Shown one piece after another: positions 14,625 through 63,804 of a DNA stretch of 64,000 nucleotides. The DNA lies in contig CASICQ010000003.1 in the NCBI GenBank assembly GCA_949373235.1, positions 49,136 through 113,135 of the forward strand, written 5' to 3'. The position numbers and the translations under genes are program-made. Every line of letters begins with the position of its first letter. Position 1 is the first letter of the stretch. Source of the DNA: Candidatus Poseidoniaceae archaeon (GTDB lineage: Archaea; Thermoplasmatota; Poseidoniia; Poseidoniales; Poseidoniaceae). The notes below the pieces were generated by a model. The model did no database searches, was not told the DNA's origin, and saw only the letters and a program-made list of their open reading frames with translations.

Positions 14625-14629
14625 CGACA

Positions 14630-14725
14630 TATCATTTCCATGAAATCGCGAGGGTTCTTACAAACCCCTCAAGACATTATGGAGGAGTACAATGGGTGTT
14701 CAGTCCCCCAGTACACTGCCTAGCG
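14630..14725 (-). repeat. Intergenic repeat element copy D (reverse orientation; best match to copy A)
   Basis: The reverse complement is CGCTAGGCAGTGTACTGGGGGACTGAACACCCATTGTACTCCTCCATAATGTCTTGAGGGGTTTGTAAGAACCCTCGCGATTTCATGGAAATGAT. It sits between convergent genes ending at 14624 and 14745. Confidence 0.8.
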
Positions 14726-14744: not shown

Positions 14745-15779
14745 TTAGTCGAGGCTCGGGGAAAAAAGCGTTGAAAGAGCAATTTGCATCTTTCTGTAAA
14801 AGTTTAGGGTAAGCCTTCGACTCAAAACATCCCCGTTCCGGCGTATCGCTTCTTTCAGAATGGCGTTGTAAGCCATGCACATCAAGCGAGGCGATCTGCG
14901 AGCGTCCTTGTCCAGCAGAGGCAGAAGCCCCAGAGCATTGTTTCGATTCGCAACGACATGGTCGATGTAGTGGCGCATGAAGTTTTGCCATGCTGGGCGT
15001 GTAGCGAGGGTAGGGTCGGTTAGATCATCGTGTGTAAGTCCGAACTTTGCAAGCTCTTCTGTTGGCAAGTATATGCGATTGCGCTCGAGGTCTTCCTGGA
15101 TATCTCTGAGCACGTTCACGAGTTGCAAAAACAATCCCATTTCGACGGCATGGCGCCGAGCGTTTGGGTCGGTGTAACCATAAATTTCGATTAAGCACAG
15201 GCCGACGGTGGATGCCACGCGGTAACAATAACGTCGTAGGTCTTCAAAACGAGCGTAATTTGTTTCAAACAAATCATCTTCCATGCCGTTGATGAGTTCT
15301 CGCAGGTGTTCCAAATCAATCGGATAGCGCTGAGCGGTATCTGCGAGTGCGATGAACATCGGTTCGTTCATTGATTCCCCACGTTCGATGCTGTCAAGTC
15401 GAGCCCTGAACATCATCAAGCCACGCAATCGCAATCGATGCTGTTCCGTTTCATAAATTGGATTTGCTTCTCGTTGATCAAGCAGCGTTGAGCGGCGTTC
15501 TTCTGTCGCCCCGTCAAAGCTGGATAGATCTCCTTCGGGGAGCCAGTCACCGTCGACGATGTCGTCAACCCGCCGGCAGAAGGCATACAACGCATTGACG
15601 GCTTTTCTCTTTGGTTCCGGCAAATGCCTGAACGAGCGGAAGAAGGAACTTGAAGCACCACGGGCAATGGATTCACAATCAATGTATGCCTGTTCAAGAC
15701 GTTCACTGGAAGTTGAACTTCCATCTTCAACCAACAAGAAACTCGATGTCATCTGTTCTTCACCTCCGGTAACAATCAA
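14745..15779 (-). CDS. crtB: Phytoene synthase (squalene/phytoene synthase family)
   Basis: YCYRVASTVGLCLIEIYG and VNVLRDIQEDLERNRIYLP correspond to the two Asp-rich/substrate motifs YCYxVAGTVG and NILRDVxEDxxRGRxYLP of CrtB. Confidence 0.8.
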   Translation of the reverse strand: MIVTGGEEQMTSSFLLVEDGSSTSSERLEQAYIDCESIARGASSSFFRSFRHLPEPKRKAVNALYAFCRRVDDIVDGDWLPEGDLSSFDGATEERRSTLLDQREANPIYETEQHRLRLRGLMMFRARLDSIERGESMNEPMFIALADTAQRYPIDLEHLRELINGMEDDLFETNYARFEDLRRYCYRVASTVGLCLIEIYGYTDPNARRHAVEMGLFLQLVNVLRDIQEDLERNRIYLPTEELAKFGLTHDDLTDPTLATRPAWQNFMRHYIDHVVANRNNALGLLPLLDKDARRSPRLMCMAYNAILKEAIRRNGDVLSRRLTLNFYRKMQIALSTLFSPSLD

Positions 15780-24681: not shown

Positions 24682-27600
24682 TCAGAGGTCCAGTCCTGAA
24701 AGACGGGCTTCAAGTGCGGCGAGCGCAGGATCAGGTGCTGCTTCTGGAGCTGGCTCCTTGCGATGCTCCCAAGATGCGTCGAGTTGAGCAAGTTCGGCTT
24801 CCAGTGCCGCCCGTTCGTCGCTGCCGTCCAAATCCGAGGTTGGTTCGATCGATGGTGATTCGGGGGGGGTTTCATCCACAGAATTTGTGCCTGCATCCAC
24901 CGGAATGGGCATTTCCTCCCACCCCTGTTCGTCGGCAACAGCAACCTCGACCGCAGCGTCAAGGGACACTGGAACTTCCCCTGCGAGGGTGGATTCCATG
25001 GTTGCAATCATGTTCACTTCAACCGGGGTGCGTTGACTGGCAGGCACTGAATCCCTTTCGTATGGCAATAAGCCGTCGCGTTGGAATTCCCAAAGCATGC
25101 CGCGGGGCACACCATCGGCAAGACCTGAAGCGTCGAGTTGCGTGATTAATTCCTCAAGCACCCTAGCGGTGTCTTCCAAAGCCACAGCCTCCCCAGCATC
25201 CCTTTGATCAGCTTCCAAGTAGATATCATCAAGTGCAACTTGAATCAATTGGCGTGTGGATTTGGCAATGCTTGGGAGCGCTTCTGGCCGAGTGCAATTG
25301 TTGAGCAGGGCCTCCACCTCTTCAGGTGGGGCGCCGAGTCGAACAAGTTGCTCGAGTACATTTCTCAATCGACGCAACATGGTGATGGATCGGTCGTAGT
25401 CTTCCAGTAAGTGTTCAAGGTCCAAGACCACATGGCCTACTGTCTCACCGAGTTGGTGTTCAAGGCGTTGTTGAACCGACCATCGAGCGAGTCCTCGTAC
25501 CGCACCTGCTGTCTGAGGCACTTGGCGTTCAAGTAAGGTCATGACTTCGCTTGAAAGTAAATGCCGTGGAGTTGCTGCAACATGATCAACAGTGGATTGA
25601 ATCACCTGCAAACCGCGTTCCACCGCTCGGTCAAGAAGGGTGACGGAGTACCCAAGCGCACGGGCGTGTTCCAAGCGTTCCAGCACCGGTCCAAGTCCGT
25701 CAAAGGTTTGAGCGTCGTCAAGAAGGGCTTGTGCAAGCGGTTCTTCTGCCAAACGTGCACGCAGGCGCTCAGCTTCCTGGATGTCGGCCACTGCAGCTTC
25801 GTGGGCTTCGGACAACGCCTCCGCTCGTTCGATGAGCGAAGCAAGTTCTGCTTCTGCGTGGCCTCTTCGAGCACCAAGGTCCCCTAACTCCCGCAAAATA
25901 TGCCTGCGTTCGTCCATTAGTTCGCGAAGTTCAGCCTGAACTTGGGCTTGGCGTGCCTCATCGGTGGCAAGTCGGTTTCGATCCTCTTCTGAACGACGTC
26001 GGCTGGCCTTGGCTTCCGATTCAATGGCGGACAACTCAGAGGTGTTGGTCTTGATTTTCTCATCCAACAGGAGGACTTCTGCTTGGGCCCGAGCGTGGCG
26101 TTCTCGTGTTGCTGCCACTTGTTCTTGCAGCACCTGCAGTCGACGTTCGTCGTCCTCGCTTTGTTGACGAATGGAGGAAAGTTGTTGGCTGTGGGTGTTG
26201 AGTTCAGCGTTCAAAGCCGCTTCTTTCAGCGACATGTCTTCAATTGCGGTTCGCAATGTTTCACTCGACGAGGCATCGCCGAGTGCTTTCGCTAATTCTG
26301 CGGCACGTTGGGAAACTTGGTGTTCAAGTTCATTGACTCGACGCACAAGACGCTCAGCTCGGTTCTCTGCTTGTTCAGAAGAAGCCTTAGATTGGGCCAA
26401 TTCAACTTGCATTGTGTTGTGCTTTGAATGAGCTTCTTCAAGCGAAGTTGTTGATTCCGCCCGAGTTTCTTTCGCTTCTCTGGCGACAATTTGTGCAGCG
26501 GTGGCTGCTGCATTCGCTTCATTCAATCTGTTCTCAACTGTTGCTTTTTCTTTCTCAAGTTCATCAATTCGATGGTCTGCGGCTTCCAGCCGACGGCGCA
26601 GGCCAGCGTCAACAGCAAGGGGTTGTGATGCTTCACCGCCCAAACCACCGCTTACCACTGCCACAGTTTCTGTGAACGAGGCTCCAGCGCGTTGGGTTCT
26701 GAGGTGTTCCATGCCTGTCTCAAAGCCATACAGTTCGTTTAATTTTGAAGTTAAATTCGCCCGACGGCTTTCCGAACGAGTTCGTAAAGTCACAAGGAGA
26801 TCTTGGAAATGATCAAGCGTGAATCCTTCGATGGTTCCGGAGTCCCTCGAAACAATGCTACCAGATGGCAATCGATGCAATTTCAAGACTCGAGTGGAAT
26901 CGGTAAAGGTCAGCATGGCTTCCTCCATGGTTCCACTTTGAGGGGCAGAAACACCCACTGGGATACCACGCGCTAAGACCACGGAAACAGCGGTTGAAGA
27001 TTGGCCAGACTGGAGGTGACCCGTGACTTCCTCATGCATTGCGGCAGAAAGCATGGACAGAATGGCGTCAGGTCCGCCTCGGCCTTCCCTCAAGACGAAT
27101 CCATCAGGGATGGGGCCCCCGGATGCACCGATTGCACCAAACTCTCCGTCCAAAATGCCAGCAACTGCAGAAATAATCCGAGCATGATCTGCATTTGCCT
27201 CTGTCCAAACACCGAGGGATGCATCACCGGATTGGGCGAGTAAAAGAGCACCGTCTTCGTGGTGCATGGTCCAGTGCGATGCCGAGGGGTCAATCCCTTC
27301 ATCCATCACTGAAATGGCCATGGCGCTCAAAGAGCCATGGATCTCACGGGCGAGTGTCTCTGCATCATTGGGTAAATCACCAACGCTGTCAATTAACAAG
27401 CCTTGATCGATGGCAACTGCTCCTCGGACCGTATCACGGCCCACAAGCACTTGCAATACGGAAGATAAATCACGGGACATGAGGCGTTGCAATGCATCCC
27501 CGCGCGGCAACAGCCCTTGGCGATCAGCTGGATGTTCAAACGCTTCAGGGAGAACTTCAGCGACGCTACCTAATCCAGCGAGGGAGTAGGATTGAGCAAT

Positions 27601-27852
27601 GAAGCGTGAAGCACCTTCGGCTTCAATTGAAAGCAAACGATCTTTCGCTGCTGTGCCTGCGAGGAGGGTTTTACCCTTTCCAGATTCTGCAAGCCAACCG
27701 ACAATCCTTCCAGCACGGACCAGTCGATGGCCAGCAGGGGTTTTCCTACGTCCAATCCAGGTGCTGATTACGCCGTGGTCAAAAGGCTGAATTATTCCGT
27801 CATCAACCGAAATGGCTTCTTCGATTGGGGTTCCTTGTGGTAGGTTAAACAT
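24682..27852 (-). CDS. Giant coiled-coil protein with N-terminal Roadblock/LC7-like segments and an acidic Pro/Ala-rich C-terminus
   Basis: The N-terminal region has VRGAVAIDQGLLIDSVGDLPNDAETLAREI (Roadblock-like) and a P-loop-like AESGKGKT. About 500 aa of heptad-rich sequence follows (ELEKEKATVENRLNEANAAATAAQ...). The C-terminus is rich in E/D/P/A. Confidence 0.6.
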   Translation of the reverse strand: MFNLPQGTPIEEAISVDDGIIQPFDHGVISTWIGRRKTPAGHRLVRAGRIVGWLAESGKGKTLLAGTAAKDRLLSIEAEGASRFIAQSYSLAGLGSVAEVLPEAFEHPADRQGLLPRGDALQRLMSRDLSSVLQVLVGRDTVRGAVAIDQGLLIDSVGDLPNDAETLAREIHGSLSAMAISVMDEGIDPSASHWTMHHEDGALLLAQSGDASLGVWTEANADHARIISAVAGILDGEFGAIGASGGPIPDGFVLREGRGGPDAILSMLSAAMHEEVTGHLQSGQSSTAVSVVLARGIPVGVSAPQSGTMEEAMLTFTDSTRVLKLHRLPSGSIVSRDSGTIEGFTLDHFQDLLVTLRTRSESRRANLTSKLNELYGFETGMEHLRTQRAGASFTETVAVVSGGLGGEASQPLAVDAGLRRRLEAADHRIDELEKEKATVENRLNEANAAATAAQIVAREAKETRAESTTSLEEAHSKHNTMQVELAQSKASSEQAENRAERLVRRVNELEHQVSQRAAELAKALGDASSSETLRTAIEDMSLKEAALNAELNTHSQQLSSIRQQSEDDERRLQVLQEQVAATRERHARAQAEVLLLDEKIKTNTSELSAIESEAKASRRRSEEDRNRLATDEARQAQVQAELRELMDERRHILRELGDLGARRGHAEAELASLIERAEALSEAHEAAVADIQEAERLRARLAEEPLAQALLDDAQTFDGLGPVLERLEHARALGYSVTLLDRAVERGLQVIQSTVDHVAATPRHLLSSEVMTLLERQVPQTAGAVRGLARWSVQQRLEHQLGETVGHVVLDLEHLLEDYDRSITMLRRLRNVLEQLVRLGAPPEEVEALLNNCTRPEALPSIAKSTRQLIQVALDDIYLEADQRDAGEAVALEDTARVLEELITQLDASGLADGVPRGMLWEFQRDGLLPYERDSVPASQRTPVEVNMIATMESTLAGEVPVSLDAAVEVAVADEQGWEEMPIPVDAGTNSVDETPPESPSIEPTSDLDGSDERAALEAELAQLDASWEHRKEPAPEAAPDPALAALEARLSGLDL

Positions 27853-51679: not shown

Positions 51680-52126
51680 GTGTCAGAGGTCGCATTGGAA
51701 GTTGAAACAAACCCCCTCAAATCCCTCTGGAAGGTCATTGCGGGCTCCACATTGATCGCCTCGATGTGTTGCCTACCCTCTGTGGTTTTGGTGATGCTAG
51801 GGCTTGCAACCGTCTCGACTGGAGCCGCTCTTTCCGACACCCTCTACTGGGGCGGCGATGGATACGGTTGGTTTCGTCCGCTGATGGGCGTTGTGGCCGC
51901 AATCAGCGTTGTTATTGGATTGACCGTGTACTTCAGAAACCAGGGCATATGCACCCTCGACCAAGCAAAACAATCCCGTCGAAAAATAATCAACACCTCG
52001 TTGCTGGTGTTGACCGTCACCTACCTGACATACTTGTTGTTTAACTACGTCATCCTCACTGAGATTGGCATCCAATTCGGATTGCCTTGGGAATCAAGCC
52101 GTGATTCCTACATGTTTTGGCGATGA
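51680..52126 (+). CDS. Small membrane protein (4 TM), hypothetical
   Basis: Evidence is hydrophobicity pattern only. It is convergent with the PPTase gene. Confidence 0.35.
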   Translation: MSEVALEVETNPLKSLWKVIAGSTLIASMCCLPSVVLVMLGLATVSTGAALSDTLYWGGDGYGWFRPLMGVVAAISVVIGLTVYFRNQGICTLDQAKQSRRKIINTSLLVLTVTYLTYLLFNYVILTEIGIQFGLPWESSRDSYMFWR

Positions 52127-52882
52127 TCAGGCATTGCCCCGGGTGGTCTTGCAACCAACGCCCCATTCGCTTTCAGTCATTGCTTTCCTTGTCGCTTCGA
52201 GCAGCGCATCCTCCGGGGTTGGAACAGCGCGGATCCCCGCTGTAAAGGCGATGGCCATACTGGCCTCCTTGTGAGCCCACTTTACCAATTGAATTTTTGA
52301 TTTTTCAATTGATAAGTATGACCGTTCTACTCCAATTGGAATTTCAATTTTCCTCGGGTTCAGGTGCATGCCTAGGCCAAGGGATTTTTGGATTGCTTCT
52401 TTGGAAACCCACGCTTCGATGGCGCAAGAAGGGTGAGCGAGTAAAAACTCCAGTTCTGCTCCTTTGGCCATCATGGAAAAGGCGTTTGGTTGGATGCCTC
52501 GGTCGCTCGGCTCTCCGTCCAAACCAACGCACCATTCAGGCTCGGCAATGGCCACATAAGCCCACCCGCCGCTGTGACAGAGGCTGATCGAAGGCAGCGG
52601 CGTGTTCTTCCAAACGCCTGCGATGTAGGCGAGGTAAGGAGCTCGATGTTTCGTACGTTCAACGCTCACCAGCGTGGCATCAATGCCCCACAGGGCGAGG
52701 GCTTCTTGCAACAACCAGCGGCCTGTGAGGTGCTCATCGCATCGCTTCTGAACGACAAACGTAGCCACTTCATCAGCATCAGCCAAAACCACATGTTCAG
52801 GTTCATGCGTTTGGACTGGACTGCGTAAAACCAAGCAGGTTGGCAAATCATCCCCGGGTGGTTGGAGATGTTCAATTGTCAT
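52127..52882 (-). CDS. 4'-phosphopantetheinyl transferase, Sfp/PfaE type
   Basis: SISLCHSGGWAYVAI (SxSHS-like), CVGLDGEP (Mg-binding GxDxE-like) and WVSKEAIQKSLG (WxxKEAxxK) are present. It lies 12 nt downstream of the megasynthase. Confidence 0.7.
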   Translation of the reverse strand: MTIEHLQPPGDDLPTCLVLRSPVQTHEPEHVVLADADEVATFVVQKRCDEHLTGRWLLQEALALWGIDATLVSVERTKHRAPYLAYIAGVWKNTPLPSISLCHSGGWAYVAIAEPEWCVGLDGEPSDRGIQPNAFSMMAKGAELEFLLAHPSCAIEAWVSKEAIQKSLGLGMHLNPRKIEIPIGVERSYLSIEKSKIQLVKWAHKEASMAIAFTAGIRAVPTPEDALLEATRKAMTESEWGVGCKTTRGNA

Positions 52883-52894
52883 TTTTAGGCCTCA

Positions 52895-54712
52895 TCAACG
52901 CTCAAGCGTGAAGGCTTCTTCATCCGAAACCGGAGCCATGCCCTTGAGGCGTAGACCCTTGAGCGCCAAAACAGGTGCGTCATCTTCTCCGACAATCACC
53001 ACATCATGCACCGTAACACCGGCCTCTTCAACCGAAGTTCGGAGGCTCCGCATACGAAGCAGTTCATCTCGTTCTGGCACCCGAAGCATGGAAGACCATT
53101 CGATGCCTACGGGGAGGGACGAGAAACCTTCGCTCTCCATAGCCACCAATCCCGCATTTTGGAACCCTGCCTCGATGAGCATGGGAAGCGCTTCAAGCAA
53201 GACTGTTTCACCTTCTGATTCATGCGCAAACTGGTCGGTTGCAGGCAATTGATGCCGCATCAAAGCAATGCCGTCTGCCCCTGGCATCGATTCGTCACCG
53301 ACGCCACGCAGAACACCTCCATGCGACTGGAATCGAGGCCCGTGGAAGTACCTGTCATAGATGAAGGAAGGTTGTTCCGCAAGTTCACCAGGCGCGGGAA
53401 TTCCAAGATTCGGGAGCGCTTCCACTTCCGCTTGCAAGAACGGCCAAAGGTCGTCGCCTTTTTCCACGAGGCGTACTGAAGCCTTGTGGTGCTCTCGTTC
53501 ACCAAACACCTCGCCTTTAGAATTCGTAAGATCTGACACGAGGGTGCATTTCACCCATGTGAGGTCGTTTTCCGTCCGATCAAACTCAGCGGTGACTCGC
53601 ACGGTCATCGGTCCTTTGAGCAACTTCACAGGCAAACCGAATTCGACGGATTCAAATCCAGCTAAACAGGTCGAAGGACGCATCAACAACGCCACTTCAG
53701 CGAACATTTCCAACGCCATAACCCCGGGGTGGTACGGAACGCCCTCAATCGCGTGGTCGATCAGGAAGGGGTGGTCCTCTTCCGACAAGGTTGATTGTAC
53801 AGTCAGTGATTGATCTTCTCGGCAGGCAAGCACTTTGTCGATGAAAGGAAAACGTTGTGGGTCGGCAATGATGCTTGCCATTTCAGCAGGTAGACGGAGG
53901 GGGGCTTCTCTAAAGGCATCGAAATGATCCATCTCTCCTAGGGATCCACATCCAATGACGCGACGCTTGCCTCCTGCAAGGGCTTCATCCACAAAGATGT
54001 TCACGCCTTCATCCACTGAAAGGGTGTCAATTCCTGCGGCTTCAAAGACCGCTTCAATTGAGCCTCTTGTCGCCATACCAACGTCCCGCCACCCAGTCCA
54101 ACCAATGGCTACAGCACGGCAGGTTCCAGAAGCGGTGAGCCGTGCCATTTCAGCATCGAGAACACTGTTTGCTGCTGCATAGTCTGTTTGCCCTCCGTTG
54201 CCGAACCGTCCGGCAACGCTGGTGAAGCATGCTGCGAAACGAGGGCTTTCGGCTCCTGAGGCCAAGCATGCGGCAAGCATGCACTGCCAACCATCCACCT
54301 TGACTCGAACCACCTTGTCGAACACATCGTAGTCCTTGTCCGCAACAAGTTTCGAATCCTCTAAACCAGCACCGTGAATCAAGCCCGTAATCGGACGATT
54401 GAGGCTTTCTCCGACCGCTTGCATTGCTTCACGGTCCATGACGTCGACGGGGTGGTATGAGGCAGAGTTGCCCGTGGACTCAATTGAGTTGAGGGTATCA
54501 TACACATCTCGACTGCGAGTGAACTTTTGCCAAGCCTTGTTCCACTCAACCATGGTGACCTTGCCTGATTCGCTTGCCGCAGCAAGACGTTCGCGCAAAG
54601 CCATCCGTTCAACCTCAAGTTCTGGTTCGCCCCAAGTGATCCATGTTTTGGTTTGTTCAATGAGGTGAGAGCGACCAAGAAGGGCGAAATGAGCTCCTGC
54701 ATTGAATGACAT
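52895..54712 (-). CDS. C-terminal fragment of the type I FAS/PKS megasynthase: catalytic ketoreductase subdomain plus PKS-type dehydratase
   Basis: The KR subdomain (about 53918..54712) shows the HGAG...KVDGW...YAAANSVLD catalytic Tyr/Asn region. The DH domain (about 52913..53860) carries the HxxxGxxxxP motif LIDHAIEGVPYHPGV. The reading frame is contiguous with the upstream 2364-aa ORF if one base is removed at the C5 run 54721..54725. Confidence 0.8.
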   Translation of the reverse strand: MSFNAGAHFALLGRSHLIEQTKTWITWGEPELEVERMALRERLAAASESGKVTMVEWNKAWQKFTRSRDVYDTLNSIESTGNSASYHPVDVMDREAMQAVGESLNRPITGLIHGAGLEDSKLVADKDYDVFDKVVRVKVDGWQCMLAACLASGAESPRFAACFTSVAGRFGNGGQTDYAAANSVLDAEMARLTASGTCRAVAIGWTGWRDVGMATRGSIEAVFEAAGIDTLSVDEGVNIFVDEALAGGKRRVIGCGSLGEMDHFDAFREAPLRLPAEMASIIADPQRFPFIDKVLACREDQSLTVQSTLSEEDHPFLIDHAIEGVPYHPGVMALEMFAEVALLMRPSTCLAGFESVEFGLPVKLLKGPMTVRVTAEFDRTENDLTWVKCTLVSDLTNSKGEVFGEREHHKASVRLVEKGDDLWPFLQAEVEALPNLGIPAPGELAEQPSFIYDRYFHGPRFQSHGGVLRGVGDESMPGADGIALMRHQLPATDQFAHESEGETVLLEALPMLIEAGFQNAGLVAMESEGFSSLPVGIEWSSMLRVPERDELLRMRSLRTSVEEAGVTVHDVVIVGEDDAPVLALKGLRLKGMAPVSDEEAFTLER

Positions 54713-57700
54713 TTCTGCTACCCCCGATCACCGATGCAGCCGTGACGCCAGATCCGCCGCCTGAAACCAACCAAGTGTCGTCGGATTGCAAGGGCGTACG
54801 TTCTTCAACCAAATCTTCAGCAAATGCCACAAGCGCCCACCGGCGTTCGTCTCGGTCAAGGCCAATTTCAACCTCGCCCGCAATGTTGAACACGTCATGA
54901 TGAATCAAAGCGGCTGCTTGTGCAGGATCTAGAATGAGTTCAGGATGAACATCAAGGGCACGGCAGCGGAGGTGCGGTTGTTCAAATGCATAGGATTTCG
55001 TCACACCGGAGGCAGCGCATTGAACCGCATTGAACCGCTCACCAATGTTTCCATGTCGTCCATCTAAGGCGGTAATAGAGGCTACAATTCCAGCATCGAG
55101 GTTTGAAAGCTGTGCGTCGAGGCCTTGCAGCAAGGAAAAGTATCCTTGTGCGGCCAGAGCAATCTGAGATGAAGGATGCCCATCTTCCGCCCACGAAGCG
55201 CTGGCCAACTTGAGCGGCGACATGTGAATCAAGGCAGAGATGTTGTGTCCGTTCAAGGCTTGACTCACCGCAGCGATGTGTTCGGGGTTACCGGGATCTG
55301 CACGGTAGACGACTCTCTTGCCTTCTTGCTGGACAGACATGTCCCGAATGTTGCTCTCGAAACCGATGCGAATCGCATCCATGCCGTCCGCTTCAAGGAG
55401 TTGACAGAATACCTCTGCGATGCCCCAACCGTCGTCTGTAACAACGGCTGTTCCCTTCAAAGACATGGGGGCATCTCGACCCGGTGCTGCTTCAACTTCA
55501 ATTTGCCAGCGTCGTGATTCAACGGTTGTGGTCGTTGAAACCAAAGAGGGAGCGGTTGATGCCTCCGTTTGGCTTGGAGGGGCGGGTGAACCAGTGGATG
55601 CATCGCCCTTCATGCGGAGGATGTAGGCAGTAAAATGGTTCAGCGTAGGATGATCAGACAAGACGAAGTCTTCGTCCAATGGAAGGTCGAACACCTCTCG
55701 TACATCACCCATAATTTCGGCTTGCTTCACGGTGTCTATGCCCAATTCTCCCTCGAGGTCTTGATCCATTTCAATGAAATCAGCTGGGTAACCCGTGTGC
55801 TTAACGACAATCTCAACCAATTGGTCATCAACTGTGCCGTCTGTTGCCACACCTTTCGGTTTTGAGGTTGTTGGCTCACTTGGGGCAGGTGCTACCGGGG
55901 CAGGTGCTACCGGTGCTGGTGGAGAGGGCGCCGGTGCTGCCTTGGCTGGGCTCGATGGTGCTTCGCCTCCTTGCATGCGATGGATGTAGGCAATCATGTG
56001 ATTCAAGGTTGGATAATCGGATAGAACAAAATCTTCATCAAGCGGTAAACCAAATCGATCGCGTATGTCCGCCATAATTTCGGCTTGCTTCACCGTGTCA
56101 ATCCCCAATTCACCTTCGAGGTCCTGGTCGAGTTCAATGAAATCAGCCGGATAACCGGTGTGAGTCACGACAACTTCGACCACAGTGGCCCGCAAATGCT
56201 CTTCATCAACCGGGGAGGCTGGAGGGTGTGGGGCTGGGGAAGCAAGAGGTTGCGATTCAGCGACTGGCTGTGGTGCTTCCTCAGAAGGCAGTTGGGTCGG
56301 TGCAGCAGGTGCTGGAACGGGAGCAGTGGTTCCACCGCTCATTCGTTGAATGTAGCCAATCATGTGATTCAAGGTCGGATAATCAGAGAGCACAAATTCT
56401 TCATCCACAGGGAGGTTGAACCGTTCACGAATATCAGCCATGATCTCGGCCTGCTTGACCGTATCAATGCCCAACTCACCCTCTAGGTCCTGATCCAATT
56501 CAACAAAATCAGCTGGGTAGCCCGTGTGATTGACAACCACATCGATGACTACGGTGACGGCATCGCCTTCAGCGACAGCCGACGGGCTGAGTGATTGTAC
56601 TGAAGCCGGTGCTGGTGTTGGAGCAGGGAGGCTCGGCTGAGGAGCGGGGACTGAAACTGGTGGAGGAACGGGGGTTGGGACTGGGTTTGGCACAACCGAG
56701 GGTTTGCCTTCAAAAGGCGCTGTGATGGGCCAAGGATCCCCTTGAACGCCGCCATGAAGGTTGTTCTCACCGTCCACATAAGCAACCAACTTCTGATCCA
56801 GCAAACGCATGACTACGTCTTCATTGCCCGCTAAGCGACGGTTCCATGCCAGGAATTTCGCCCCGTCAATCCGTTCACCAACAACGGGCCAGCGGCGAAC
56901 AAGTGAAAGCGCCATTTGAGACCCAAATCCAGCAGCGAACCGAAGGCCGTACTTGAGGTTTGGATAATCGCCACCTTTTGAGAGGTTGAGGTTACCCAAC
57001 TCAGGGTCGACTTCCTTGTGGTTTGCAATCGGAGGTATCCTTCCAGTTTTCATGCCGTGGAACATGCTGGCGTCTTCAATTCCAACTGCCATTGGATGAC
57101 CAGTGAAGCCTTTTGTGTTCGCAATGACAAGTTTGTCCGTGCTGTGTGTGAAGGTGTCTCGCAACGCCCGAACTTCGGATTGCGCCGACCCACCCCGAGC
57201 AGGGGTGTAGGTCTCATGGGAGAAAAACACGGTGTCAGAAGCGATTTCATGGCGGTCGATGCCCCATTGTTGTTCCATGGAGGTGACGAAGTTGTCCACC
57301 GTTTCAGCAACGTGATCAACATCAAGGCGAGTGCCGTGGAAGGCGGAATTGGCGGTGGTCGCACCGAGCAATTCTGCAATTGGTTGAACACCACGCTCTT
57401 CCGCTTCTGAATTGCGTTCAACAACGAAGGCTGCTGCGCCCATGCCGAGGATCAATCCATTGCGCCTCCGGTCGAATGGCAATGCTGTTTCTTCGACCAC
57501 GTTGTGGGTTGCAGCAGCTCCTGATGCGGCGAAGCCCCCACCAATCCATTCCCACATGTCATCGCCCGTTACGTCATCCGCCGAGATGATAACAACACGA
57601 TCGACGCGATCGGCGTTGAGCCAATCTTCCGCAACGCCAAACGCTGCTGTGGCCGATGCACACGCTAGATTGATGATTGTGTTTGGACCTCGAATACCAG

Positions 57701-60700
57701 AGTATTGAGCGAATTGTGAATGGCCCATTGCTAGAGTTTGGAACAGGTACCGTCGATCAAAGCGCCCCTCACCGTCGTCGCCGTTTGCTTTCGCATGTTT
57801 CAGGGCCATTTGGAAGCCAGGGAAACACGAAGCGAAGACGATTCCTGTTCGATCCCGGGTGTGCTGAGGGACTTGCCAGTTTCGAATCAAGCGCAATCCG
57901 CCCTTGCCGATTTGTTCAACGGGAGTCAATGGAATCGCTGCATCTCTTAGGGCAAGGAGCCCAGCGGCCATGCCGAGTTGTGTCGTTATGTCCCAAGCCA
58001 GTATGACCTTTGGATCAATGCCAAATTCTTCTGCAAGATCAAAAGCACCTTTCACGCCTGCGAGTTGGGGCACGTCGCCAAACGCTGTGGCTTGGTCCAT
58101 GTTCACTGAACCATCTCGCCCTTTGATCAAGCGAACCAGATTCTTGTCCAGTAAGCGTTGCTTGTAATCATCGGTGACTTCTGAGATGCAAGTTTCACCG
58201 CGAACAAGGCGCTCAAAAGTATCTTCATTGAACACACTCTCCCCGCCAGGAAGTCCAAGCGACACGCCCGTTACGACAAACGGATCTGCACGGCGCCGGC
58301 TCATTGGGTCATGGCCTGTTGCAGGGGCATGACCTGCAGAAGAAGGAGCGGCCATTCGAGTCATTGAGGACTTCGGTGACCAACCAGCAGGAGGTGTTGC
58401 AATCCAACGGGCTACGTCCGCAACCGTTTTGGCGCCGCTAACGTCCACTTCCGGGTCGGTTTTCGCCTCGGAAACCACAGTTTGGAACAGAGAGGCAATG
58501 CTTGCTTCCGACATGCCAAGGCCAAGGCGTAAATCGACCATTCCGTGGCAGAAACGAGCGGGATAATTCGTAAGGGAAGCAATCCGGTCTCCAAGGTAAG
58601 CATCCTTGGCTTTTTGAGCGGCAATCTCCGGATCGAGGTTCGGGGAGCTCGAGGCTTGCTGAACATGCACCACTTGAGGTGTTCCAGTTCCAGCAGCAGA
58701 AGGCAACGGGCGGGCTCGCGTGCGCAAATCTTCACCCGATGAGGTGGCTCGATGTGCTTCAATTGGCCCGGCACGGAACGCTTCGGTCAGTGCGGCTGAT
58801 GTTGGCGCCGGCCAATTCATCGGACGTCCTGCGAGCGCCATCGTAGCGAGGGCGGTCAAAAAGGATGCGATTCCACCTTGTTTGGGGTGGTTTGTCATGA
58901 CTGGCAAGTGAGGCTGATCTTCAAGAATCTGAACCGCAAACATGCTCAGAGCGCGCTTGGGCCCGACTTCGATGAACGCTCGTGCTCCGGCTTCATACAT
59001 GGTTTGAATTTGAGCGGTCCATTCAACTGAGGAAGCCATTTGCAAGGCTAACTTGCTGAGAACTGCGGATTTCGAAGCCTCCAAATCCTCGCTGTCTGAA
59101 GGGTTCATTGGGTAGAATTCCCCGTCGACATTGGCCGTGATTGGGATGGTGGGCCAACGAATATCAAGCCCTTCTAAGAACCTGCGAAGAGGTTCGTTGG
59201 CTGGTGCGACAATCCTCGAATGGAAAGCGTGGGAGGTGGCCAATGGCATCGATTGGAATCCTTTGGCTTCAAACTCAGCCATTGCGGCCTTCACCGGTTC
59301 TGTTTCACCAGCGATGACGGTCATCTTTGGAGAATTTTTATTCGCTGCGATGACGTAACCGTCGACAGCGTTGATGATTGTTTCAACCTCTGAATATGGC
59401 GCACTAACGCTTGCCATGAGCCCTTTATCGTCAATTTCTACAGCGCCCATTTCAGTTCCGCGAGCAGCTGCTGCACGAAGTGCTCCGTCCATATCCAAAA
59501 TCCCTGCAGCCATCAAGGCAGCGTATTCGCCGAGCGAATGGCCAGCGACCATATCGGGGTGAATGCCGTGATCGTTGAGCGCTCGCTCGATGGCCAGGTC
59601 AGCGGTCAACATGGCAGGCTGAGTGTATTCTGTCTGCTTTAGTTTGTGTTCAGCCTCTGCCTGTTCTTCTTTCGAGAGGTTTGACCGAAGTACGAAACTT
59701 GACAGGGTTTCACCTTCAAGCACCTCGATCATGGTCTCATCGGCCTTGGCCCAAACCTGCTGAACCGCAGTGTAGCGTTGATGCAGATCATGGGTCATAC
59801 CGACGTATTGACTGCCTTGTCCAGGGTACATGTGCGCAACCTTGGCTTTAGCATGAAGCGGAGCGTCTTTGGTGATCAAAACGCCTTGGGCTTGTAGGAA
59901 GCCCCACTTGTCTTCATCGTCCATGGCCTTGAGAGCCAATTCAACTCGCTTGTTGAACTCGGCCCAATTGGTGGCAATAACGGCCATCCGCATTGAAGCG
60001 CTTGAATCAAAGGAACTTGATGCAGCATAGAGAGCATAAGACAGACGGATTCCTTTCGGGTCTTCATCGAAGGTGGCTCCTTCGAAGGAAGTTGTCGTGA
60101 GGGCCTGCCTTAGGCCTTCGAGGGATTCGGCAGAGAGCAGAAGCATGCCACCTTCAACCGCTTTGAGTTGTTCGTGAGTCATGCTTGGTGCCGCAGAACC
60201 ATCGAGAATGGACGGGGCGGAAGGGGTTGTTGAAGAAGAGGTTTCAATCGCAGCATAGGCTTGCCATCGAAGATCCCATTCGCGCGCCAACGGAGCGTGA
60301 TATTCTGGCTCATAGCCCTCAAGAGCGATGTGGAAGTTCGTACCGCCGAAGCCAAAGGCGGAAATGCCTGCCCGTCGCGGGTGGTGTTCAGGTCGAGGCC
60401 AATCGCGGGCTTCGGTTGGAACAAAGAAGGGAATCTCACTCCATTCAACGGTCGGGTTTGGCGTTTCAAACCCTGCGGATGGGGGAATGGTGCGGTGGTG
60501 AAGCGCCATAACGGTCTTCATGATTCCTGCAATACCAGCAGCGGCTTTGAGATGGCCAATCTGAGATTTTATCGAGCCGACAGCAACATGGTCTCCACTT
60601 GGGAACCCGTCCCAAAGCAAAGATAACGTCGACAATTCGGTCGCATCTCCCACCTTTGTCGAGGTGCCGTGGGCTTCCACGAGTTCCACTGTGCTTGCAG

Positions 60701-61751
60701 GATACCCCGCTTGATTGTACGCTCGGGCGATGGCCTGAACTTGGCCCCGCTGGCTTGGTGCAGTGATGCCCTTGCCGCGCCCATCGGAGGAACCACCTAT
60801 GCCACGGATGACTGCGTGAACCTCATCGCCATCTGCCAAAGCATCGCTCAGGCGTTTCAACAGCAACACACCAGCCCCCTCACCCATCACAAAGCCGTTT
60901 GCTCGGGCATCAAATGGGGTTGAATGAGTCGGTGATAAAGCGCCAATGGCACTGAACTTCGAAAATGTGGCCGGATCCATCGTACGGTCTGTAGCCCCTG
61001 CGAGCATGAGGTCCACCTGACGGGTTTGCAGCAATCGGCAAGCATCCAAAACAGCCGCCATGGAAGACGCACAGGCGGCGTCCATTGCGTGGTTGGGGCC
61101 TTGTAAATCGAGTAGGTTTGCGACTCGGCCTGAAACCACATTGGCCAATTCCCCAGGCATTGTGTCTTCATCGATTCGTGGCGTACCCTCAACCAACTCT
61201 TCGGTGAACGCTTCGATGTTCTGTTCTGCAAGCCCATGCTTCTTAGCCAGCTCTTTGGTGTGGTTGGACCACACGCGAATGTTGGAAAGGTTGCGGTTCT
61301 CACCGCCGAGCGCATTTGCGAAAACAACGCCACATCGAGTGCGATCGATGTCTTTTGTTTCGCCATCATAGCCGGCTTGCTCGATGGCATCTGCTGCTAC
61401 AGAAACCGCCCAAAGTTGGCATGGATCAATTTGCGGGAGGGTGCCTGGTGGCTGCCTCCATCGACGCCAGTCGAATTCGAACCCTTCGACAAGAGCTCCG
61501 ATTTTGGCGTAGGTGAACCCTTCTTTGCTGTCGCCAGGCCCACCTTCTCGATAGAAATGGTTGATTGGACCCGGCCATCGGCCTTCCTGTATCTCTCGAA
61601 TACTGACTTTGGAATCGATGATGTTCTGCCAGAAGGCTTCGATGCTTGGCGCGTCAGGCATCAGGGCTGCCAAACCGATGACTGCAATCGGTTCGAACGG
61701 TCCTTGATCAAGCCCTTCGCAGGGTTTGCCATTTGCTGTTGTGATCGTCAT
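54657..61751 (-). CDS. Type I FAS/PKS megasynthase, PfaA-like: KS - malonyl-AT - second KS - 3 tandem ACP-like domains - KR structural subdomain and start of the KR Rossmann fold
   Basis: KS1 (about 60327..61694) has GPNHAMDAACASS, EAHGTSTKVGD and KSQIGHLKAAAG. AT (about 58947..59834) has GQGSQY, GHSLGE and the malonyl-type SHAFHS. KS2 (about 56892..58289) has NLACASATAAF, FHGTRLD and GFTGHPMAVG. Three repeats of HTGYPADF(V/I)E(L/M)DQDLEGELGIDTVKQAEIM are PfaA-style ACPs with Thr at the Ser position. The ORF ends within the KR GGGSG loop because of a frameshift. Confidence 0.85.
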   Translation of the reverse strand: MTITTANGKPCEGLDQGPFEPIAVIGLAALMPDAPSIEAFWQNIIDSKVSIREIQEGRWPGPINHFYREGGPGDSKEGFTYAKIGALVEGFEFDWRRWRQPPGTLPQIDPCQLWAVSVAADAIEQAGYDGETKDIDRTRCGVVFANALGGENRNLSNIRVWSNHTKELAKKHGLAEQNIEAFTEELVEGTPRIDEDTMPGELANVVSGRVANLLDLQGPNHAMDAACASSMAAVLDACRLLQTRQVDLMLAGATDRTMDPATFSKFSAIGALSPTHSTPFDARANGFVMGEGAGVLLLKRLSDALADGDEVHAVIRGIGGSSDGRGKGITAPSQRGQVQAIARAYNQAGYPASTVELVEAHGTSTKVGDATELSTLSLLWDGFPSGDHVAVGSIKSQIGHLKAAAGIAGIMKTVMALHHRTIPPSAGFETPNPTVEWSEIPFFVPTEARDWPRPEHHPRRAGISAFGFGGTNFHIALEGYEPEYHAPLAREWDLRWQAYAAIETSSSTTPSAPSILDGSAAPSMTHEQLKAVEGGMLLLSAESLEGLRQALTTTSFEGATFDEDPKGIRLSYALYAASSSFDSSASMRMAVIATNWAEFNKRVELALKAMDDEDKWGFLQAQGVLITKDAPLHAKAKVAHMYPGQGSQYVGMTHDLHQRYTAVQQVWAKADETMIEVLEGETLSSFVLRSNLSKEEQAEAEHKLKQTEYTQPAMLTADLAIERALNDHGIHPDMVAGHSLGEYAALMAAGILDMDGALRAAAARGTEMGAVEIDDKGLMASVSAPYSEVETIINAVDGYVIAANKNSPKMTVIAGETEPVKAAMAEFEAKGFQSMPLATSHAFHSRIVAPANEPLRRFLEGLDIRWPTIPITANVDGEFYPMNPSDSEDLEASKSAVLSKLALQMASSVEWTAQIQTMYEAGARAFIEVGPKRALSMFAVQILEDQPHLPVMTNHPKQGGIASFLTALATMALAGRPMNWPAPTSAALTEAFRAGPIEAHRATSSGEDLRTRARPLPSAAGTGTPQVVHVQQASSSPNLDPEIAAQKAKDAYLGDRIASLTNYPARFCHGMVDLRLGLGMSEASIASLFQTVVSEAKTDPEVDVSGAKTVADVARWIATPPAGWSPKSSMTRMAAPSSAGHAPATGHDPMSRRRADPFVVTGVSLGLPGGESVFNEDTFERLVRGETCISEVTDDYKQRLLDKNLVRLIKGRDGSVNMDQATAFGDVPQLAGVKGAFDLAEEFGIDPKVILAWDITTQLGMAAGLLALRDAAIPLTPVEQIGKGGLRLIRNWQVPQHTRDRTGIVFASCFPGFQMALKHAKANGDDGEGRFDRRYLFQTLAMGHSQFAQYSGIRGPNTIINLACASATAAFGVAEDWLNADRVDRVVIISADDVTGDDMWEWIGGGFAASGAAATHNVVEETALPFDRRRNGLILGMGAAAFVVERNSEAEERGVQPIAELLGATTANSAFHGTRLDVDHVAETVDNFVTSMEQQWGIDRHEIASDTVFFSHETYTPARGGSAQSEVRALRDTFTHSTDKLVIANTKGFTGHPMAVGIEDASMFHGMKTGRIPPIANHKEVDPELGNLNLSKGGDYPNLKYGLRFAAGFGSQMALSLVRRWPVVGERIDGAKFLAWNRRLAGNEDVVMRLLDQKLVAYVDGENNLHGGVQGDPWPITAPFEGKPSVVPNPVPTPVPPPVSVPAPQPSLPAPTPAPASVQSLSPSAVAEGDAVTVVIDVVVNHTGYPADFVELDQDLEGELGIDTVKQAEIMADIRERFNLPVDEEFVLSDYPTLNHMIGYIQRMSGGTTAPVPAPAAPTQLPSEEAPQPVAESQPLASPAPHPPASPVDEEHLRATVVEVVVTHTGYPADFIELDQDLEGELGIDTVKQAEIMADIRDRFGLPLDEDFVLSDYPTLNHMIAYIHRMQGGEAPSSPAKAAPAPSPPAPVAPAPVAPAPSEPTTSKPKGVATDGTVDDQLVEIVVKHTGYPADFIEMDQDLEGELGIDTVKQAEIMGDVREVFDLPLDEDFVLSDHPTLNHFTAYILRMKGDASTGSPAPPSQTEASTAPSLVSTTTTVESRRWQIEVEAAPGRDAPMSLKGTAVVTDDGWGIAEVFCQLLEADGMDAIRIGFESNIRDMSVQQEGKRVVYRADPGNPEHIAAVSQALNGHNISALIHMSPLKLASASWAEDGHPSSQIALAAQGYFSLLQGLDAQLSNLDAGIVASITALDGRHGNIGERFNAVQCAASGVTKSYAFEQPHLRCRALDVHPELILDPAQAAALIHHDVFNIAGEVEIGLDRDERRWALVAFAEDLVEERTPLQSDDTWLVSGGGSGVTAASVIGGSRNVIQCRSSFRPSWSLSPH
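55608..56579 (-). repeat. Three tandem coding repeats (363-366 nt period) encoding ACP-like carrier domains joined by Pro/Ala-rich linkers
   Basis: The repeat units are about 70-aa identical-motif blocks separated by PAP-rich linkers. The copies are diverged at synonymous sites. The 'Ser-position' codons are CGT/CGT/GGT on the plus strand, which read ACG/ACG/ACC (Thr) on the coding strand, at 56460..56462, 56094..56096 and 55731..55733. Confidence 0.85.
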
Positions 61752-61760
61752 GCGCTCACT

Positions 61761-62555
61761 TCACTGATCCATGATGCTCTGAGGCACCATGGTGATCGAA
61801 TAACCGCCATCGACGTATATGCACTGGCCTGTAACGCCGCTTGCGAGAGGGCTTGCAAGCCAAAGCGTTGCTCCCGCTACATCGTTTTGATTGACGTTAC
61901 GGCGCAATGGTGCATTGGCTTCGACGTGGTCAAGGATTTTGTCAAAACCCGGAATGCCACCTGCGGCAATGGTGCGTATGGGGCCGGAAGAGATGGCGTT
62001 GACGCGATGACCTTCCGGACCGAGGTGGCACGCAAGTTCCCTCGTCCAGCATTCCAATGCAGCCTTAGCCATCGACATGATGCCATAATTAGGAACATAT
62101 CGGGTCGAAGCGGCGTAGGTTAGCGTGATGGTGGACGAACCAGGGTTGAGGTAAGGCAGCGCATGCTTCAAGCAACGTTGCAGCGAATTTGCTGAAATGG
62201 TCATGGCCGTGTTGATATCAGCATCTTCGACGAAGAGAATGGGGCGATCAAAGCAACTTCGAGGCGCAAAGCCGATCGCATGAATGAGAATATCAGCCTT
62301 GAGCCCTGGATGTTCTGCTGCAAAGGCGTCGAAAAATTCCTTTGTTGTTGCGTCCTCTGCCACATCAAGCGGGTAGAATCCGCCAATTTGTGGTAATTTG
62401 TCTTTGAGTTGGAAAATTCGGCTCATGAATCGCTTCTGATACCCGAGGTAAAGCGTCACACCAGCGGCCGCCAACTGTTGACAAATCGCCCAAGCGATGG
62501 AATCCTCGCTCGCCACACCAAACACGAAGGCGGTCTTTCCTTGCAATTGTAGCAT
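61761..62555 (-). CDS. fabI: Enoyl-[acyl-carrier-protein] reductase, FabI-like (SDR family)
   Basis: LQGKTAFVFGVASEDSIAWAICQQLAAAGVTL parallels the FabI N-terminus [21 protein letters not shown]. The FabI-type Tyr/Lys catalytic spacing (YxxMxxxK region AASTRYVPNYGIMSMAKAALE) is present. It lies 9 nt upstream of the megasynthase. Confidence 0.8.
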   Translation of the reverse strand: MLQLQGKTAFVFGVASEDSIAWAICQQLAAAGVTLYLGYQKRFMSRIFQLKDKLPQIGGFYPLDVAEDATTKEFFDAFAAEHPGLKADILIHAIGFAPRSCFDRPILFVEDADINTAMTISANSLQRCLKHALPYLNPGSSTITLTYAASTRYVPNYGIMSMAKAALECWTRELACHLGPEGHRVNAISSGPIRTIAAGGIPGFDKILDHVEANAPLRRNVNQNDVAGATLWLASPLASGVTGQCIYVDGGYSITMVPQSIMDQ

Positions 62556-62670: not shown

Positions 62671-63804
62671 TTACAAATCATCGAACATATCGTCGAATTC
62701 GTCGGCCTTTGAAGGACCGTCGAGGTCTGAAAAGAAATCGTCTAAATCGTCATCCAAAGCTGGCGATTCAACTGAAGCGGGATATTCGGGAAGATCGATG
62801 GCGACAGGCACCTGAATCGCTGAAGCGGCTGCAGTGCCCCGAGAGGAGCGCTTGGTGGCTTTTGCTAAAACCACGACCAAAAGCAGAACGAGGATGACCC
62901 CTCCTGCGATTGCAGCGTATTGAAGCACCTGATCCTTGTCTATTTCCTCAAGGTTACCGCCAAGCGAACTTGATTGACCGGGAGCAACGACGTTGAGTTG
63001 AACTGTAATTTCGCTCGACGCTGCGCTGCTGTCAACGCTGCTTTCGGCTTGGAAAAGCACAGGGAGGCGGATGTCTTCAGCGAGATCCGAAGGTGAGCGT
63101 ACCGTCAAGGTTCGGAGGCTCGAAGTGCCTTGGTAGGCCACTTCTTCGCTCACAAATGTGCCTGCTGGGAACGAGAAGCCTGCGGCAACCAAGTCCGCTT
63201 CATTGGCGATACGAATCACAATGTTATCGTCATCGTTGCCTTTGTTGGTGAATTGGAAGGTGAAATCGACTTCTTCTGATGTAGAGAGTTCACGGGTGGT
63301 TTTGTCGGACATGATCAATTCAACCATTCCATAGGAAGCAATTGAGAAATCACCAAGATAGGATTGGTTGACCACCCATGGGCCATCCGGAAGTTCCCCG
63401 TATGGAAGGCCGTTCCAAGAGGTCACTTTGGCTTCGATTTCAAATTCATGAGTGAGGGAAGCTGGGAGTCTTGTTTGGCCCGAGAACACGATGTTGAAAC
63501 TCTCTTCATCGCCGGCAGCAAGAGTAAATTCATCTTCACTGAGCGTCATTTCTACGTTGACGCCATCCCATTCGATTTTATCGACCTTGACGACTTCACT
63601 TGCCGAGGTTGGGTTGGTGACCGTGCAGACAAGGACAGCATCCTCGTAGAAGTTTGGATGAACGTTCATCACCGGGTCTGAGCCACAGTCCAACTCGACC
63701 GCAGGAAGCGGTGAGCCTTGTGCTGCGGCGCCAGTTGAGAGCGCAGGCAAGACGAATAAGGTCAACACGAGCAACGCGGTGAATGCCCTACCAAATCGTG
63801 CCAT
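62671..63804 (-). CDS. Secreted surface protein with C-terminal TM anchor and poly-acidic cytoplasmic tail, hypothetical
   Basis: A signal peptide FTALLVLTLFVLPALSTGAAAQG is present. The C-terminal helix AIAGGVILVLLLVVVLA is followed by KATKRSSRG and a DDDLDDFFSDLD...DEFDDMFDDL tail. Confidence 0.55.
   Translation of the reverse strand: MARFGRAFTALLVLTLFVLPALSTGAAAQGSPLPAVELDCGSDPVMNVHPNFYEDAVLVCTVTNPTSASEVVKVDKIEWDGVNVEMTLSEDEFTLAAGDEESFNIVFSGQTRLPASLTHEFEIEAKVTSWNGLPYGELPDGPWVVNQSYLGDFSIASYGMVELIMSDKTTRELSTSEEVDFTFQFTNKGNDDDNIVIRIANEADLVAAGFSFPAGTFVSEEVAYQGTSSLRTLTVRSPSDLAEDIRLPVLFQAESSVDSSAASSEITVQLNVVAPGQSSSLGGNLEEIDKDQVLQYAAIAGGVILVLLLVVVLAKATKRSSRGTAAASAIQVPVAIDLPEYPASVESPALDDDLDDFFSDLDGPSKADEFDDMFDDL

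Follow-up and report, generated by a model that had tools for sequence, protein, structure and literature searches.

A very large synthase gene in a Marine Group II archaeon (Candidatus Poseidoniales) is interrupted by what looks like a single extra base, which raises the question of whether the gene is truly broken or only appears so in one assembly. In the window, the 64,000-nucleotide stretch of a Candidatus Poseidoniaceae archaeon that was analysed, the gene is read as two overlapping ORFs. A previous reading of this DNA, made from the letters and their translations (the sequence-only reading), proposed a homopolymer error of sequencing or assembly as most likely, with an inactivating mutation or an authentic enzyme of two polypeptides as the other options.

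The window genes discussed here are encoded on the reverse strand. ORF1 (54657..61751) codes for 2364 aa, with the C-terminal end LVSGGGSGVTAASVIGGSRNVIQCRSSFRPSWSLSPH just before a premature stop codon (54657..54659), and ORF2 (52895..54712) codes for 605 aa starting with MSFNAGAHFALLGRS. They overlap by 56 nt, ORF2 being in the +1 frame relative to ORF1, as had already been described for the 2364-aa ORF and its neighbour in another frame. The change of frame has to lie between a TGA in the frame of ORF2 (54728..54730), which sets the upstream limit, and the stop of ORF1. Within this interval the coding strand has a GGGGG run (54721..54725; CCCCC on the forward strand), the site of the one-base insertion, where sister strains have GGGG and read ATC GGG GTA GCA (I G V A). 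Deletion of one G opens the frame through GVTAASVIGVAEMSFNAGAHFALLGRS, and the repaired gene (52895..61751) encodes a PfaA-like type I synthase of 2951 aa that is identical to protein P0129 at 2951/2951 residues. This bears out the suggested single-base frameshift at the run and the continuous product of its repair, the size of which had been put at about 2970 aa and is corrected here. Given such a match between aligned proteins, the restored frame is not a chance effect. The intact gene of the population has 8856 nt and a 2951-aa product; past the break, ORF1 continues for 24 out-of-frame residues (GSRNVIQCRSSF) until the premature stop.

The domain order of the repaired synthase is KS-AT-KS2-ACPx3-(structural KR + KR)-DH. 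The KS, the AT, the second, FabF-like KS, the three ACPs, the structural KR subdomain, and strand beta1 and the Gly-rich loop of the KR are all in ORF1. ORF2 covers the KR from the end of helix alphaA onwards, its S...YAAAN catalytic motif included, and a PKS-type dehydratase showing an HxxxGxxxxP motif. A phmmer search against solved structures aligned only the part of the KR that follows its insertion, which leaves the Gly loop uncovered and the break unplaced, and the position of the break was taken from an AlphaFold model (mean pLDDT 83.3) of a homologue with 83% identity. According to this model, the break is located in helix alphaA of the KR (model residues 366-378). In the Rossmann fold, that helix comes after the Gly-rich loop and is flanked by strands beta1 (357-361) and beta2 (385-390). 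The sequence-only reading was therefore right about the Rossmann fold of the KR, but the break falls in helix alphaA of the modelled structure and not in the nucleotide-binding loop. The cut is not at a domain boundary: beta1 and the Gly loop end up on one side and the remainder of the same Rossmann domain on the other, with no docking elements present. If the fifth G is real, the glycine loop of the KR is split from its catalytic residues and from the dehydratase, so that loss of function is likely and the enzyme, judging from its domain layout, would likely be inactive.

Close relatives carry the gene in one piece. P0129 is recorded on nine other contigs from metaSPAdes, MEGAHIT, TARA, and Logan assemblies, including one of the neighbouring run ERR10946523. 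At the DNA level, identity to the window is 99.77-99.92% for five sister loci; each has GGGG and aligns to the window with a single gap, consistent with a run-length difference of one G. JGI/TARA contigs were also scanned, the TARA scaffolds being retrieved by a pattern that allowed either four or five G, and both scaffolds that matched have GGGG. This gives 7/7 near-identical loci (five contigs with P0129 and two TARA scaffolds) with the shorter run and an intact gene. The Logan assembly of ERR10946523 has GGGG in the same local sequence context. Across the order, a protein-based scan of GTDB found the junction continuous in 80/80 of the listed species-representative Poseidoniales genomes. 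The exact DNA pattern had 0 matches in the GTDB species representatives, which means that the window genome is not one of them, and in the nearest species representative the site reads ATC GGT GTG GCA, without any run. The ATG of ORF2 corresponds to an internal Met codon in the sister strains (VAEMSF) and is not conserved in other species (VAQASP, VSESSF, and similar).

The longer run was found only in the window and in the Logan assembly of run ERR10946522. The Logan contig (10,856 nt) deviates from the window at one position, a common synonymous polymorphism; a C/T polymorphism is located at 58245. A literature search with the accessions ERR10946522 and ERR10946523 gave no paper. The two assemblies have in common a window-private synonymous SNP at 53891 (A on the coding strand, G in five sister loci), and thus represent the same strain. 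They agree on five G, and since their read sets are possibly identical, this agreement excludes an assembler error and not a systematic read-level one. The assembly is otherwise clean. The extra G is the sole window-private indel in about 49 kb compared with the sister strains, and the alignments to most sister contigs, spanning 14.7-54.2 kb, contain no gaps. Read together with the gap-free alignments, 122/122 homopolymers of at least 5 nt, including a G8, a T8, and two C7, match the sister strains in length. No other split genes were seen among the ORFs that were scanned against Pfam or compared with the gene calls of sister contigs. Two window ORFs starting with GTG or TTG had no exact protein match, probably because other start codons are chosen in public gene calls. 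The many indels, concentrated in the longest homopolymers, that are expected of an artefact-prone assembly are absent from the window.

Sister alleles differ from the window at 4-20 nucleotides, all synonymous (0 nonsynonymous), in a set that is biased towards this result, having been retrieved by exact protein identity; in an unbiased set, covering the last 1265 nt, four sister comparisons add up to 9 synonymous and 2 nonsynonymous differences. Together with the conservation of the gene in 80/80 species representatives, the counts show purifying selection on the gene, so that the lesion, if real, would be a loss and not neutral drift in a gene already dead. The part downstream of the shift has no further decay and is identical to the intact alleles at the protein level, from which it follows that the event, if real, would be very recent.

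Could the organism simply have four G and an intact gene, the fifth being a systematic read-level or consensus error of the data set behind this contig? The restriction of five G to one sample, when all other near-identical loci including that of the neighbouring run have four, is what such an error would produce. Yet the longer run was recovered by an algorithmically independent assembly from run ERR10946522 alone, and Logan unitigs are built from k-mers seen at least twice. The gene is often frameshifted in error-prone public assemblies, and in two long-read contigs polished with pilon the orthologue is broken into three ORFs; against this, the window has only the one private indel described above, although a lone indel in about 49 kb also fits the residual error of a polished long-read assembly and to that extent counts against a genuine insertion. 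The wild-type run has only 4 nt, while 122 runs of 5-8 nt are correct, the reverse of what homopolymer errors that increase with length would give. A GATC directly adjoins the run, and bases in this context may be systematically miscalled by certain long-read platforms; the neighbouring run, with identical local context, gives four G, which speaks against a context-driven error if the platform was the same. The exact equality of the repaired protein with a known intact protein and the lack of decay after the shift also suit an artefact, and an artefact would look just like a genuine insertion in giving a frameshift in one sample only, within a gene under strong purifying selection. On balance, the second assembly, the solitary indel, and the agreeing homopolymers do not support the rank of most likely explanation that the sequence-only reading gave to a homopolymer error, and we consider an error a possible but rather doubtful origin of the extra G, a real mutation now being somewhat more likely.

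Other explanations accept the fifth G and let the enzyme survive, or be switched. One is improbable in our view: translation of ORF2 would begin independently at the ATG (54712) that follows the Shine-Dalgarno-like GGTGATCGGGGGT, and its product would associate with that of ORF1, or else ribosomes would slip by +1 on GGG-G. The start context, GGTGATC GGGGG T AGCAGAA ATG (54710..54732, with the ATG at 54710..54712), has purine-rich motifs resembling Shine-Dalgarno sequences at 7 and 13 nt before the ATG, and GAGG/GGAGG-type motifs occur at similar spacing in many genes of the window, so that we infer that translation may start there; however, the Met codon is lineage-specific, and the cut lies within helix alphaA of a Rossmann beta-alpha-beta unit, away from any domain boundary and without docking elements. 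In such a slip, tRNA-Gly could move from GGG onto the overlapping GGG with formally perfect pairing, and the slip would regenerate the wild-type I-G-V-A and hence some full-length protein. Nonetheless, the 128 nt downstream of the run fold with an MFE of -27.9 kcal/mol (z = +1.39), 184/200 shuffles folding at least as well, which confirms the initial impression that no frameshift-stimulating structure is present there, and a run of five G is too short for efficient transcriptional slippage. The abundance of the strain, sufficient for assembly into a 268-kb contig, counts in favour of a working enzyme. The comparison with orthologous loci speaks against a functional split, since neither a split nor a frameshift is found at this position in the species representatives (0/80) or the sister loci (0/7); the authentic two-polypeptide enzyme and, the relatives being all single-frame and the downstream structure lacking, programmed ribosomal frameshifting were both rejected. 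Very long contigs also yielded homologues of 563-671 aa (P0068, P0070-72, P0075, P0078, P0090) that looked like candidates for a conserved split. The loci of P0071 and P0068 turned out to be 'contig_N_pilon' long-read assemblies with the synthase in three ORFs and breaks elsewhere, and give no evidence for a real split; in one of them the neighbouring TatD gene is also fragmented. Least credible of all is phase variation, where slipped-strand mispairing in the G run, acting as a contingency tract, would turn the synthase on or off. A change in homopolymer length and two states, four and five G, in one population are what it would look like, but the tract has only 4-5 nt, known phase-variable tracts usually having at least 7 nt, the off state is confined to one sample, and the run is missing from the nearest species representative; we rejected phase variation for the shortness of the tract and its absence from that species.

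We thus favour a genuine and very recent insertion of one G over a sequencing artefact, and think it probable that the extra base, whose presence in the DNA we infer from the assemblies, is real. The lesion is private to one sample, is reproduced in two assemblies, and faces an intact gene everywhere else. The population normally has a single intact synthase gene, flanked by genes for a FabI-like enoyl reductase and a PPTase-like protein. In the strain dominating one sample (run ERR10946522), the run of four G would have gained one, most plausibly by replication slippage. Translation would then leave the frame in helix alphaA of the KR and stop 24 codons on. The main product would be the 2364-aa protein, which would keep the glycine loop and lack the catalytic residues of the KR as well as the dehydratase. 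The elongation cycle would be left without its beta-keto processing part, and the gene would be a natural knock-out or a nascent pseudogene.

This has consequences for how the locus is annotated and used. ORF1 and ORF2 are best annotated as a single disrupted gene, with a repaired product of 2951 aa, and not as two enzymes, and a working synthase should be credited to the genome only after a check of the reads. If the insertion is real, a strain without an otherwise strongly conserved bacterial-type acyl-chain synthase can dominate a Marine Group II sample, a small natural experiment on the dispensability of this synthase. A thriving strain with five G would imply either that the PfaA-like synthase is dispensable in nature, as in a natural knock-out, or, far less probably, that the enzyme still works as two polypeptides or through +1 slippage.

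The affected system resembles, in part, the polyketide-type PUFA synthases of Bacteria. The best NCBIfam match of the repaired synthase is PfaA (TIGR02813), at 877.2 bits and thus below the family cut-off of 1010.1. Like PfaA, it has KS-AT ... tandem ACPs-KR-PKS-type DH in a single polypeptide, and the locus further resembles PfaA systems in the adjacent gene for a 4'-phosphopantetheinyl-transferase (PPTase)-like protein. This gene (52127..52882) is directly downstream, intact, and a conserved neighbour; its assignment is weak, with Pfam matches below the gathering score in the window copy. Unlike PfaA, the synthase has an additional FabF-like KS, which sits after the AT and ahead of the ACPs and keeps its Cys/His/His triad, carries three ACPs, and is found in an archaeon; unlike PfaA systems, it lies next to a gene for a FabI-like enoyl-ACP reductase (61761..62555), directly upstream, intact, and also a conserved neighbour. 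No ORFs of pfaB, pfaC, or pfaD type were seen among the scanned ORFs of the window, and a literature search for polyketide, PUFA, or fatty-acid synthases described in Marine Group II/Poseidoniales found nothing relevant in the library searched, where a preprint that was consulted dealt with alkB alone.

The break itself can be set beside several known kinds of interruption. It is like the 'contig_N_pilon' records ERZ28548060 and ERZ28548065 in that the same gene family is cut into overlapping ORFs, but these records have several breaks per gene, in one case with a broken neighbour, whereas the window has one break in 64 kb. With the +1 frameshifting of the prfB (RF2) type it has in common the +1 relation of the frames and a Shine-Dalgarno-like element just upstream of a re-pairable codon; in contrast to that type, the site in the window is not conserved, has no slow or stop codon at the shift, and lacks a stimulatory structure. 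The window gene has no secondary decay yet, so that the sequence alone does not tell a frameshift allele from an artefact. The closest likeness is to an ordinary frameshift allele or nascent pseudogene, in which one base alters the length of a mononucleotide run, the closest relatives keep intact in-frame alleles, and repair restores the full-length protein exactly. The lesion is an ordinary private frameshift, and involves no new mechanism.

The PfaA-like synthase gene is carried on the minus strand as two pieces, ORF1 (54657..61751; 2364 aa, with the C-terminus ...SGGGSGVTAASVIGGSRNVIQCRSSFRPSWSLSPH*) and ORF2 (52895..54712; 605 aa, with the N-terminus MSFNAGAHFALLGRS), which overlap by 56 nt, the frame of ORF2 being +1 relative to that of ORF1. 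Because the ORF2 frame is closed upstream by a TGA at 54728..54730 and the ORF1 stop lies at 54657..54659, the frame must change within 54660..54727, an interval that contains the GGGGG run of the coding strand (54721..54725, minus). Deletion of one G gives a single frame of 2951 codons (...GVTAASVIGVAEMSFNAGAHFALLGRS...), whose product is identical to a protein record, P0129, at 2951 of 2951 positions. This bears out the proposal of the sequence-only reading that a single-base frameshift at a G/C run separates two ORFs of one gene; the continuous protein that it expected was found, at 2951 aa and not at about 2970 aa. ORF1 and ORF2 should be annotated as a single disrupted gene.

Intact alleles are present in the same population. 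Clustering at 90% identity groups ORF1 with many full-length proteins (2951-2956 aa), and P0129 is encoded by nine contigs. We inspected five of these sister loci (a metaSPAdes contig, a TARA scaffold, a MEGAHIT contig, and the Logan assemblies of SRR4131958 and ERR10946523), each of which is 99.77-99.92% identical to the DNA of the window, with exactly one gap, and has GGGG at the run (5/5). GGGG is likewise present in both of two further scaffolds retrieved from JGI/TARA metagenome contigs with a pattern tolerant of both run lengths. Apart from the window, the five-G allele was seen in a single record, a Logan contig of run ERR10946522.

A junction-spanning segment of 383 aa, searched against one genome per GTDB species, retrieved 167 relatives, of which the best 80, the original MG-II chromosome CM001443.1 among them, are nearly all titled as Poseidoniales-type MAGs. 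The frame is open across the junction in all 80, over at least 465 aa upstream and at least 613 aa downstream. The start Met of ORF2 is an internal codon confined to this lineage (other species have VAQASP, VSESSF and similar), and the G-run is absent from the nearest species representative, which reads ATC GGT GTG GCA there. With the frame continuous in these relatives and GGGG in the sister loci, none of these loci is split at the junction, and we rejected the natural two-subunit arrangement that had been offered as one option. Candidate counter-examples were several homologues of 563-671 aa that begin near the ketoreductase (KR) domain, on contigs of 0.3-1.2 Mb. The two inspected are pilon-polished long-read contigs with breaks elsewhere, which we attribute to assembly errors: the orthologous synthase lies in three ORFs in ERZ28548060 contig_20442_pilon (1856, 340 and 631 aa, next to a TatD gene that is also fragmented) and again in ERZ28548065 contig_16895_pilon (646, 1638 and 644 aa). 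Proteins of such contigs enter the database as apparent stand-alone ketoreductase-dehydratases and can mimic a conserved split. Two GTDB representatives with bacterial titles ('Verrucomicrobiales bacterium ARS100' and 'uncultured Rhodobiaceae bacterium') include contigs, NZEQ01000014.1 and CALDQY010000187.1 respectively, with a KR segment 72-74% identical to the Poseidoniales gene; these contigs are likely archaeal and mis-binned.

The extra G is probably a genuine recent insertion. The Logan contig was assembled from ERR10946522 alone (10,856 nt); it has the five-G run and a synonymous SNP at 53891 that is otherwise private to the window, from which it differs by one base, at 58245. This position is a synonymous C/T polymorphism (GGC/GGT) in the synthase gene that segregates among sister contigs, with C in the window and T in the Logan contig; as it is the only difference between the two, either the sample is polymorphic there or the read sets differ. 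Two different assemblers thus arrived at the five-G run for one strain, so that it cannot be the product of an assembler alone. An error already present in the reads is the rival explanation, and we hold it to be less likely. Both assemblies may share the same reads, a GATC motif directly adjoins the run, and one indel per ~49 kb would also be compatible with a polished long-read assembly; however, the neighbouring run ERR10946523 gives four Gs in the same local context, which counts against a context-driven error if the platform was the same. When the window was compared with sister contigs retrieved through unrelated proteins, there were zero gaps against most of them in 14.7-54.2 kb, and the extra G was the sole gap in 49.9-64 kb. 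Also against a read error, all 122 homopolymers of at least 5 nt in 14.7-64 kb, including G8, T8, and two C7, match the sister contigs in length, while the affected run has only 4 nt in the wild type. No second split gene was seen among the window ORFs scanned, which have full-length Pfam matches or gene lengths equal to those of the sisters. Private SNPs of the strain number only about four in the ~45 kb compared, a background against which a single private indel is not excessive.

Relative to the window, sister alleles show 4-20 differences in 8856 nt, all of them synonymous, in a set biased by its retrieval through exact protein identity; in an unbiased set, which covers the last 1265 nt, four sister comparisons together give 9 synonymous differences and 2 nonsynonymous ones. 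By these substitution patterns, the synthase gene is under purifying selection. There is no decay downstream of the shift, and the event, if real, is therefore very recent.

The break was located with a structure prediction for P0001, a homologue with 83% identity, made from 39 aligned sequences (mean pLDDT 83.3). In this model, WLVSG forms a strand (residues 357-361), GGGS a loop, residues 366-378 a helix, and HFALLG the following strand (385-390). The frame change is thereby predicted to map to helix alphaA of the Rossmann beta-alpha-beta unit, directly after the glycine-rich loop; the break had rightly been placed in the KR Rossmann fold, but in the nucleotide-binding loop itself. Strand beta1 and the glycine-rich loop remain on ORF1. 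ORF2 retains S...YAAAN and HxxxGxxxxP, which we take, from established knowledge of polyketide synthase domains, to be the KR catalytic motif and the dehydratase motif. Should the insertion be genuine, neither the KR catalytic residues nor the dehydratase would be part of the main product, the ORF1 polypeptide, which presumably could not support the reductive steps of elongation.

Functional readings of the five-G allele, of whatever kind, seem very improbable to us. It is conceivable that ORF2 is translated separately from its own ATG, which is preceded by GGTGATCGGGGGT, and many window genes have GAGG/GGAGG-like motifs at similar spacing; nothing else supports this, and ORF2 would need to rebuild a Rossmann fold severed within its first beta-alpha-beta unit. 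Also conceivable, but unsupported, is a +1 slip of tRNA-Gly on GGG-G, which would restore the wild-type peptide exactly, but the slip site is not conserved and downstream RNA folding is no better than in shuffled sequence (z = +1.39), in agreement with the earlier remark that no stimulatory structure is obvious. The run is neither a programmed frameshift site nor a phase-variable tract, as the defining features of both were looked for and not found. The lesion is a frameshift of the ordinary kind, by one base in a short homopolymer of an otherwise conserved gene.

Other parts of the window vary between strains. Between an epimerase/DUF1731 gene (5655..7055) and a squalene/phytoene-synthase gene (14745..15779), an island at ~7200..14720 encodes ORFs of 1138, 378, and 671 aa, where sister contigs (>99.8% identical elsewhere) have other genes, among them those for a resolvase, large proteins of the WD40/TSP_3 type (1124-1302 aa), an aldo-keto reductase, and HxlR regulators. 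The 1138-aa ORF (7214..10630, plus) has no Pfam match, nor has a 1056-aa ORF (24682..27852, minus) that holds the longest G/C run of the examined region, GGGGGGGG at 24862, constant in length in all sisters. The length of a small ORF (51680..52126) adjoining the PPTase-like gene is 148 aa in the window and some sisters, 143 aa in L003 and L006, but 120 aa in L004. Both L001 and L005, two independent Logan contigs, terminate at 51701, which together with the size variation suggests that the assembly graph is strain-variable or repeated at this spot.

The gene cluster hosting the lesion is more noteworthy than the frameshift itself. Pfam domains on ORF1 are ketosynthase (KS), acyltransferase (AT), a second KS stretch, and three PP-binding carrier domains (ACP), and those on ORF2 are KR, starting at profile position 37, and a PKS-type dehydratase (DH), so that the intact protein reads KS-AT-KS2-ACPx3-KR-DH. 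Both KS domains retain Cys/His/His, and the second is FabF-like. The gene is flanked by a FabI-like enoyl-ACP reductase gene (61761..62555, minus) and a weakly matching PPTase-like gene (52127..52882, minus), a three-gene set (52127..62555, minus) present at all loci whose gene tables were inspected. Upstream of the FabI-like gene, a 377-aa ORF (62671..63804, minus) without a Pfam match hits NCBIfam NF041740, 'choice-of-anchor T family protein', above the cut-off (92.5 bits, cut-off 70), and is a conserved neighbour in sister contigs. Elsewhere the window has archaeal housekeeping genes, among them those for thermosome, HMG-CoA synthase, and CDC48; the named homologues are labelled as Candidatus Poseidoniales, Poseidoniaceae, or Thermoplasmatota archaea, i.e. 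Marine Group II, and the KR segment across the junction occurs in at least 80 species-representative genomes of this group (L025-L104). It is notable to find a widespread acyl-chain megasynthase of bacterial type, with its gene under purifying selection, in an order of archaea; no description of it turned up in the literature searched, which does not prove that it is undescribed. Its best NCBIfam match is PfaA, subunit A of the polyunsaturated fatty acid (PUFA) synthase (TIGR02813), from which it nevertheless stands apart, its 877 bits falling below the curated cut-off of 1010.
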